The translations under genes and the position numbers were made by a program. 437 nucleotides of DNA, from assembly GCF_003334765.1 (NCBI RefSeq), contig NZ_QOWT01000123.1; one strand, 5' to 3'. This document shows positions 1 through 437 of this stretch, in pieces. The notes under the pieces are model-generated. The model searched no databases, had not been told where the DNA came from, and saw only the letters and a program-made list of their open reading frames with translations. How positions within the stretch are numbered: the first letter of the stretch is position 1; each line of letters starts with the position of its first letter. The DNA comes from Escherichia coli (GTDB lineage: Bacteria > Pseudomonadota > Gammaproteobacteria > Enterobacterales > Enterobacteriaceae).

Positions 1-437
1 AACAGGTCGTGATGCTTACCGAAGAACTGCTGCCTTATCCGCATAATCCGGCAAGCATTGAGCAAGATCAGGTTGATCTGATCGTCAAAGTTGATCGCGT
101 TGGCGATGCTGCAAAAATCGGCGCTGGTGCTACCCGTATGACCACTAACCCGCGCGAACTGCTTATTGCCCGTAGCGCTGCGGATGTGATTGTTAACTCT
201 GGCTACTTCAAAGAAGGTTTCTCCATGCAGACCGGCACCGGCGGCGCTTCGCTGGCGGTAACCCGTTTCCTGGAAGACAAAATGCGTAGCCGCGATATTC
301 GCGCCGACTTCGCCCTCGGCGGTATTACCGCAACGATGGTTGATCTGCACGAAAAAGGTTTGATCCGCAAACTGCTGGATGTGCAGAGCTTTGACAGCCA
401 TGCTGCGCAATCGCTGGCCCGTAACCCCAATCACATC
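1..437 (+). CDS. citF: Citrate lyase alpha subunit (citrate CoA-transferase, EC 2.8.3.10), internal fragment truncated at both window edges; codon phase begins at nt 3
   Basis: Seen in sequence: the + strand frame starting at nt 3 is open for all 145 codons to nt 437, while the other two + frames hit stops within the first 50 nt (TGA at 8-10, TAA at 44-46). Codon choice is typical of E. coli-like coding DNA (CTG Leu, CCG Pro, CGT/CGC Arg, GGC/GGT Gly, AAA Lys, GAA Glu). Established knowledge, recalled and not searched: the translation, including the segment GFSMQTGTGGASLAVTRFLEDKMRSRDIRADFALGGITATMVDLHEKGLIRKLLDVQSFDSHAAQSLARNPNHI, corresponds to the middle of the ~510-aa E. coli CitF. No start or stop codon lies in the window, so the true gene boundaries are outside it. 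Confidence 0.85.

Follow-up and report, generated by a model that had tools for sequence, protein, structure and literature searches.

A conserved Q-x-G-x-G loop in the citrate lyase alpha subunit CitF very probably contacts the cofactor or its thioester

Does the glycine-rich segment encoded in the middle of this Escherichia coli locus form a conserved loop that binds a substrate or cofactor, and which of its residues would matter? Frame 3 on the + strand stays open throughout the window, i.e. the whole stretch of DNA that was analyzed (437 nt). The window shares 100% identity with annotated citF and is carried by 5422 of the 5426 complete genomes of E. coli. Taken alone, it matches model positions 158-302 of Pfam CitF (PF04223, E 5.8e-83) and residues 200-343 of the Salmonella CitF structure 1xr4 (E 6.6e-62), and the full protein scores 815 bits against the NCBIfam citF equivalog (TIGR01584, cut-off 501). 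The neighborhood in E. coli Nissle is citC-citD-citE-citF-citX-citG-citT (the citCDEFXG operon), in which citD encodes the ACP and citE the beta subunit of citrate lyase. Pfam, NCBIfam and the cit operon agree with the gene call of the original prediction: the gene is citF, which encodes the citrate lyase alpha subunit. Its predicted activity is that of a citrate:acetyl-ACP transferase (EC 2.8.3.10), a family II CoA/ACP transferase. No Rfam families and no promoter-like or terminator-like sites were found within the window. The other frames hold three short ORFs that we regard as mechanical. A 75-aa ORF that starts with TTG lies antisense to citF on the minus strand (203-430) and shows no sign of being a genuine gene; ORFs antisense to coding sequence are commonplace.

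Because residue i of the window is CitF residue i+199, the reported segment corresponds to CitF S273-V285. Its codons (tcc atg cag acc ggc acc ggc ggc gct tcg ctg gcg gta) encode three glycines, and small residues (G/A/S/T) make up nine of the 13 positions, a density that is the highest among CitF 13-mers and is tied with 10 other 13-mer windows. The translation and the richness in glycine and small residues had been read correctly from the start. The positions of this segment and of the features discussed below are collected in Table 1.

Table 1. Features placed on the window, with positions in nucleotides of the 437-nt stretch and CitF residue numbers
Feature	Positions	Strand	Basis
Internal citF coding part, CitF residues 200-344	3..437	+	Open frame 3; 100% citF match; Pfam CitF; 1xr4
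Reported segment S273-M-Q-T-G-T-G-G-A-S-L-A-V285	222..260	+	Direct translation, frame 3
Predicted beta-strand S273-T276, carrying Q275; first strand of the C-terminal Rossmann-like domain	222..233	+	DSSP, AlphaFold2 model
Conserved core Q275-T-G277-T278-G279, putative [N/Q]-x-G-x-G loop	228..242	+	A1 conservation, hhalign register
Predicted helix G280-R296, N-terminus pointing at the loop	243..293	+	DSSP H280-296; AarC hhalign
G305-G306, end of strand 300-307, at the putative position of the class I catalytic glutamate	318..323	+	A1 conservation; hhalign AarC, ScpC

Among 120 listed relatives (clusters) at ≥78% identity, the segment is near-invariant, with M274L/I and T278S as the only changes, and this close set is too similar for testing conservation. 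The solved orthologues 1xr4 and 2hj0 are likewise identical over the segment except for M274L/F, and both read FSxQTGTGGASLAVTRF. A wide search over 1.84 billion 50%-identity representatives returned 1707 matches (E ≤0.001), of which the best 150 were listed. The alignment on which conservation was scored, A1, consists of 39 near-full-length representatives (29-60% identity) and E. coli CitF, i.e. 40 sequences. Only ~40 columns of A1 are invariant or at least 90% kept, and these include Q275, G277 and G279, each of which is retained in 93% of the 40 sequences. By information content, Q275 ranks 17th, G279 19th and G277 20th among 510 positions, placing all three in the top 4%. Their conservation is not a chance effect. 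At the level of windows, QTGTG is 16th of 506 five-residue windows and the whole 13-mer S273-V285 merely 77th of 498.

The invariant unit is Q275-x-G277-x-G279. The original prediction had put forward TGTGG(A/S) as the motif to be checked for invariance and gave Q275 no special place. That motif is not the invariant unit because T276, T278, G280, A281 and S282 vary, the E. coli residue being present in 30%, 50%, 60%, 35% and 55% of the A1 sequences, respectively. The alternatives at G280 are Ala or Ser, and Ala, Ser and Val are also common at position 278 in the wider representative set; L283, further along, is retained in 85% of A1. Thus the idea of a conserved loop stands under multiple alignment of CitF homologues in the form of the Q-x-G-x-G core, and its extension to the five variable positions does not.

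Two kinds of unusual entries were seen among the CitF-like proteins. Some divergent sequences (P0155, P0222, P0195, P0153 and P0150) are without the Q-x-G-x-G core and read, e.g. FHSDAAG or MQIETNKK; these may be inactive paralogues, proteins of other function or local misalignments. Some entries (among P0005, P0006, P0036, P0139, P0150 and P0152) are 607-943 aa, far longer than CitF, and some of the overlong entries carry extra Pfam domains (PF01874, PF03802, or PF03328 together with PF15617). Such entries must be genuine fusions to neighboring cit genes or else artefacts of gene calling or frameshifts.

The place of the segment in the fold was taken from an AlphaFold2 model of E. coli CitF built on A1 (mean pLDDT 93.7, pTM 0.88). 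DSSP assigns a helix at 249-263, a strand at 273-276, a loop at 277-279, a helix at 280-296 and a strand at 300-307. In the model, the segment forms the first strand-loop-helix junction (beta-alpha turn) of the C-terminal Rossmann-like domain, and structural mapping puts it at this turn and not on the surface away from the active site. A Foldseek search with the model recovers the solved CitF structures at TM 0.92 (1xr4) and TM 0.91 (2hj0, deposited with citrate), and the matches that follow are AarC, MdcA, 4-hydroxybutyrate CoA-transferases, RipA and SCOT (E 1e-18 to 1e-15). Our literature search for 1XR4 and 2HJ0 found no paper on the CitF active site.

To what extent the core corresponds to characterized transferase loops was addressed by profile comparison. 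HMMER comparisons of the CitF profile with PDB chains and with E. coli AtoA, AtoD, ScpC and YdiF reached the GxGGxxD region and some stretches of the N-domain but not the loop. CitF S394-G395-G396-H-C-D399 falls on the beta-subunit G-G-x-x-D (E 5.6e-10), and the GxGGxxD external oxyanion-hole motif is present in CitF, its first Gly being Ser in the E. coli protein. Because the HMMER local alignments cover the GxGGxxD region and not the loop, the register of the loop rests on hhalign, for which the target profiles were small (AtoA 3, AarC 4 and MdcA 8 sequences).

Against the AarC-family profile (AarC, 2nvv, 2g39 and E. coli ScpC), hhalign aligned 396 columns of CitF at a probability of 97.3% (E 2.3e-11). 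In this register, CitF Q275, G277, T278, G279 and G396 pair with AarC Q267, G269, V270, G271 and G388, and CitF G280-S282 pairs with AarC N272-A274, the remainder of the '270s loop'. CitF G395-G396..D399 also aligns with AarC G387-G388..D391, and the AarC numbering used here reproduces the published R228, V270, E294, N347 and G388. The comparison with eight MdcA sequences (probability 96.4%, E 1.1e-9) pairs Q275 with N258, T278 with I261 and G396 with G381. The profile of AtoA, 3cdk_B and 9ctd_C (three sequences, probability 90.5%) pairs Q275 with N22, G277 with G24, T278 with I25 and G279 with G26; AtoA has the same order of elements as CitF around the loop, and its N22 and E46 correspond to N281 and E305 of pig SCOT at a constant offset of 259. 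Against single sequences, the CitF profile gave a weak match to AtoA (51%, compared with the 90.5% of the three-sequence profile) and 45% to YdiF, in which the loop was misaligned and which was left out. The carboxamide and both glycines match in AarC, MdcA and AtoA alike. On the strength of these alignments, Q275-x-G277-x-G279 appears to be the form that the [N/Q]-x-G-x-G loop of AarC/Cat1, SCOT/AtoA and MdcA takes in CitF.

The MdcA orthologues used above were obtained by searching genome contigs for an 18-nt primer site given in the supplement of the MdcA paper, which matched mdcA of P. putida, Thiopseudomonas, Paraburkholderia and Oxalobacter and missed that of P. aeruginosa. NCBIfam classes the P. 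putida ORF as mdcA (1050 bits, cut-off 789), and all ten active-site residues named in the MdcA study (PMC5534430) are present in its product at the same numbers. The last 18 nt of mdcA (..RFRSW and the stop) are identical across Pseudomonas, Thiopseudomonas, Paraburkholderia and Oxalobacter (L009, L019, L021, L026, L027, L032 and L034), an unusually strong nucleotide conservation for a C-terminal tail. The tail is reported as required for holoenzyme assembly (PMC5534430).

Published work places the loops of these enzymes at the CoA or thioester end. Closure of the AarC active site shifts two loops more than any others, and the '270s loop' (residues 270-274) is one of the pair. Val270 at its tip has its NH 3.4 Å from the CoA sulfur while its side chain constrains the thioester; Gln267 comes to ~4 Å of the terminus of a CoA analogue, and the conserved external oxyanion hole is provided by the Gly388 NH (PMC4876117). 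The GIGI loop of TbASCT and pig SCOT shifts ~4 Å toward succinyl-CoA, contacts the pantothenate and hydrogen-bonds the ligand through one backbone NH (PMC12817287). MdcA belongs with CitF to the family II ACP transferases and has an active site without an acidic residue. For the step in which malonate attacks acetyl-ACP, an oxyanion hole made up of the Asn258 side chain and the Ile261 NH was proposed, and the Gly381 NH and Tyr134 were proposed for the second step (PMC5534430). The oxyanion hole is a model-based proposal that the authors were unable to test by assay (PMC5534430). Since the internal oxyanion hole of AarC is Asn347 and not the loop glutamine (PMC4876117), the role of the carboxamide differs between families.

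We consider it very likely that the Q-x-G-x-G loop of CitF is an active-site element that contacts the cofactor or its thioester, the CitF contacts being inferred from the homologues. The original idea of a cofactor loop is right in kind because the core is in register with the thioester- or pantetheine-contacting loops of AarC, MdcA and SCOT/AtoA, even though the motif had been drawn wrongly. Three other explanations of the segment have to be weighed against it.

The glycines could be purely structural, i.e. needed for a tight beta-alpha turn and its packing with no functional contact to cofactor or substrate. Glycine-rich beta1-alpha1 turns are general in Rossmann-like folds, and the segment is exactly a beta-alpha turn in the AlphaFold2 model, both of which count for this explanation. 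However, the polar Q275 is retained just as often as the glycines (93%) and is N or Q in three other families, and the loop is reported to touch CoA or the thioester end in each of them (PMC4876117, PMC5534430, PMC12817287). On these grounds, a turn of purely structural importance is unlikely.

Alternatively, the segment could be a classical Rossmann GxGxxG or P-loop that grips the diphosphate or phosphoribosyl of the CitD group and not the thioester. The geometry of strand, Gly-loop and helix N-terminus in the AlphaFold2 model would suit such a role, the TbASCT GIG loop has been described as adjacent to the CoA diphosphate (PMC12817287), and the window gives weak matches to KaiC (E 0.14-0.37). 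We rejected the resemblance to P-loops and KaiC as chance level because the segment fits neither pattern: G277-T-G279-G-A-S282 lacks a third Gly for GxGxxG (Ser occupies position 282 in 55%, and the residue otherwise varies), and for Walker A there is no GK[ST] or Lys. The homologues also speak against phosphate gripping, since the AarC NH faces the CoA sulfur, the TbASCT loop contacts the pantothenate, and the CoA diphosphate in MdcA is placed elsewhere, near Arg228 and another helix (PMC4876117, PMC12817287, PMC5534430). We regard this role as quite unlikely. That the loop mainly binds the carboxylates or hydroxyl of citrate, setting specificity instead of holding the cofactor, would fit the position of citrate at the domain interface in 2HJ0 (PMC5534430) and the presence of Gln at position 275 in CitF and the AarC family and of Asn in MdcA and the SCOT family, but it is very unlikely because the loop is common to enzymes with unrelated acid substrates (acetate/succinate, malonate and acetoacetate), and the malonate ligands named in MdcA are Arg341, Asn292 and Gln345 and not the loop (PMC5534430).

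A cofactor- or thioester-contacting loop could work in CitF as follows. The cofactor is the 2'-(5''-phosphoribosyl)-3'-dephospho-CoA arm of CitD, and the loop would lie at the interface of both domains, where the thioester end of this cofactor would meet the carboxylate substrate. G277 and G279 would permit a tight, probably mobile turn against whose backbone the pantetheine arm could pack. The NH of residue 278, together with the NH groups opening helix 280-296, may hydrogen-bond the thioester, the thiolate or the pantetheine. The Q275 carboxamide would form part of the pocket wall near the thioester carbonyl, where it may take part in an oxyanion hole during the attack of citrate on acetyl-S-ACP that yields the mixed anhydride. 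[quoted passage not shown] If true, the loop would itself be catalytic and not just a binding element. To our knowledge, the oxyanion-hole role in family II enzymes is so far a proposal made from the MdcA model.

The positions around the loop bear on how much of the chemistry it would have to carry. The class I catalytic glutamate, which belongs to SENG or, in AarC, to S-E and sits where the second C-domain strand ends, is absent from CitF. AarC E294 aligns with CitF G305 in the hhalign comparison with the four-sequence profile; with ScpC alone, the glutamate falls in a gap just past CitF G306, so that the register here is uncertain by 1-2 residues. Because the AarC/ScpC glutamate aligns at G305-G306, each at least 90% conserved in A1, CitF appears to carry two glycines in place of the class I nucleophile. 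This arrangement fits the direct anhydride transfer proposed for family II, which would proceed with no enzyme-bound intermediate (PMC9813914, PMC5534430). With no catalytic glutamate in CitF, the backbone and carboxamide dipoles of the loop and the G395-G396 loop would carry much of the catalytic load. CitF Q327-S-F-D330 was considered as a degenerate SENG and was rejected, since it is G305-G306 that align with the catalytic glutamate.

Several other CitF positions are near-invariant or highly conserved within the window, namely G318 (354-356), Q327, F329 and D330 (381-392) and H343 (432-434). H343 is a candidate citrate ligand because it is near the place where MdcA Arg341 and Gln345 align. 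Outside the window, residues 369-381 of CitF (L001:4406-5938), LSALEIDTQFNVN, form the most conserved stretch of the family, above the reported loop; D375 and N381 in it are invariant, and it aligns with AtoA VLGGLQVDEEANLANW. In the CoA-transferase fold, the N- and C-terminal domains are related by pseudo-two-fold symmetry, and class I alpha subunits carry GGFxGxG at the corresponding turn of the N-domain. Residues 62-75 of the N-terminal domain of CitF (L001:4406-5938) have a conserved S-F-H-H-x-x-R-x-G-D and no G-x-G loop, with G62, S66 and D75 each kept in at least 90%. They sit roughly at the expected N-domain counterpart of the first turn, a placement made by expectation and not by alignment.

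The glycine loop of CitF is an already known, ordinary feature of a well-studied enzyme superfamily, and nothing in it is surprising to a specialist because citrate lyase is well known and two orthologue structures have been solved. The value of the analysis lies in the corrected motif, Q-x-G-x-G, which is tied residue by residue to the loops of AarC, MdcA and SCOT-type enzymes, and in naming residues (Q275, G277, T278, G279, G305/G306 and G396) for tests of the proposed family II mechanism, i.e. direct anhydride transfer with no enzyme nucleophile.

Set beside the known systems, the CitF family itself is represented by 1XR4 (Salmonella) and 2HJ0 (S. mutans, with citrate), both structural-genomics depositions. 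In AarC/Cat1, the succinyl-CoA:acetate CoA-transferase (PDB 4EU3 and related; ScpC in E. coli), Q267-S-G269-V270-G271 is in register with CitF 275-279. AarC works through a catalytic Glu294 and a glutamyl-CoA intermediate where CitF has G305-G306, and its substrates are free CoA thioesters, whereas CitF uses an ACP-bound cofactor. The alpha subunit of malonate decarboxylase, MdcA (PDB 5VIT and 6MPR), has Asn for the CitF Gln and Ile for the CitF Thr; it shares ~15-20% identity with CitF, acts on malonate and has a long C-terminal extension. In SCOT/AtoDA enzymes (pig SCOT, T. brucei ASCT and E. coli AtoA), the beta-subunit or C-domain opens with a helix, a strand and N-L-G-I-G-x-P, again with Asn for the CitF Gln. 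Although the SENG glutamate of this group (AtoA E46) is absent from CitF and its members are often split into two subunits, the GxGGxxD region is common to both.
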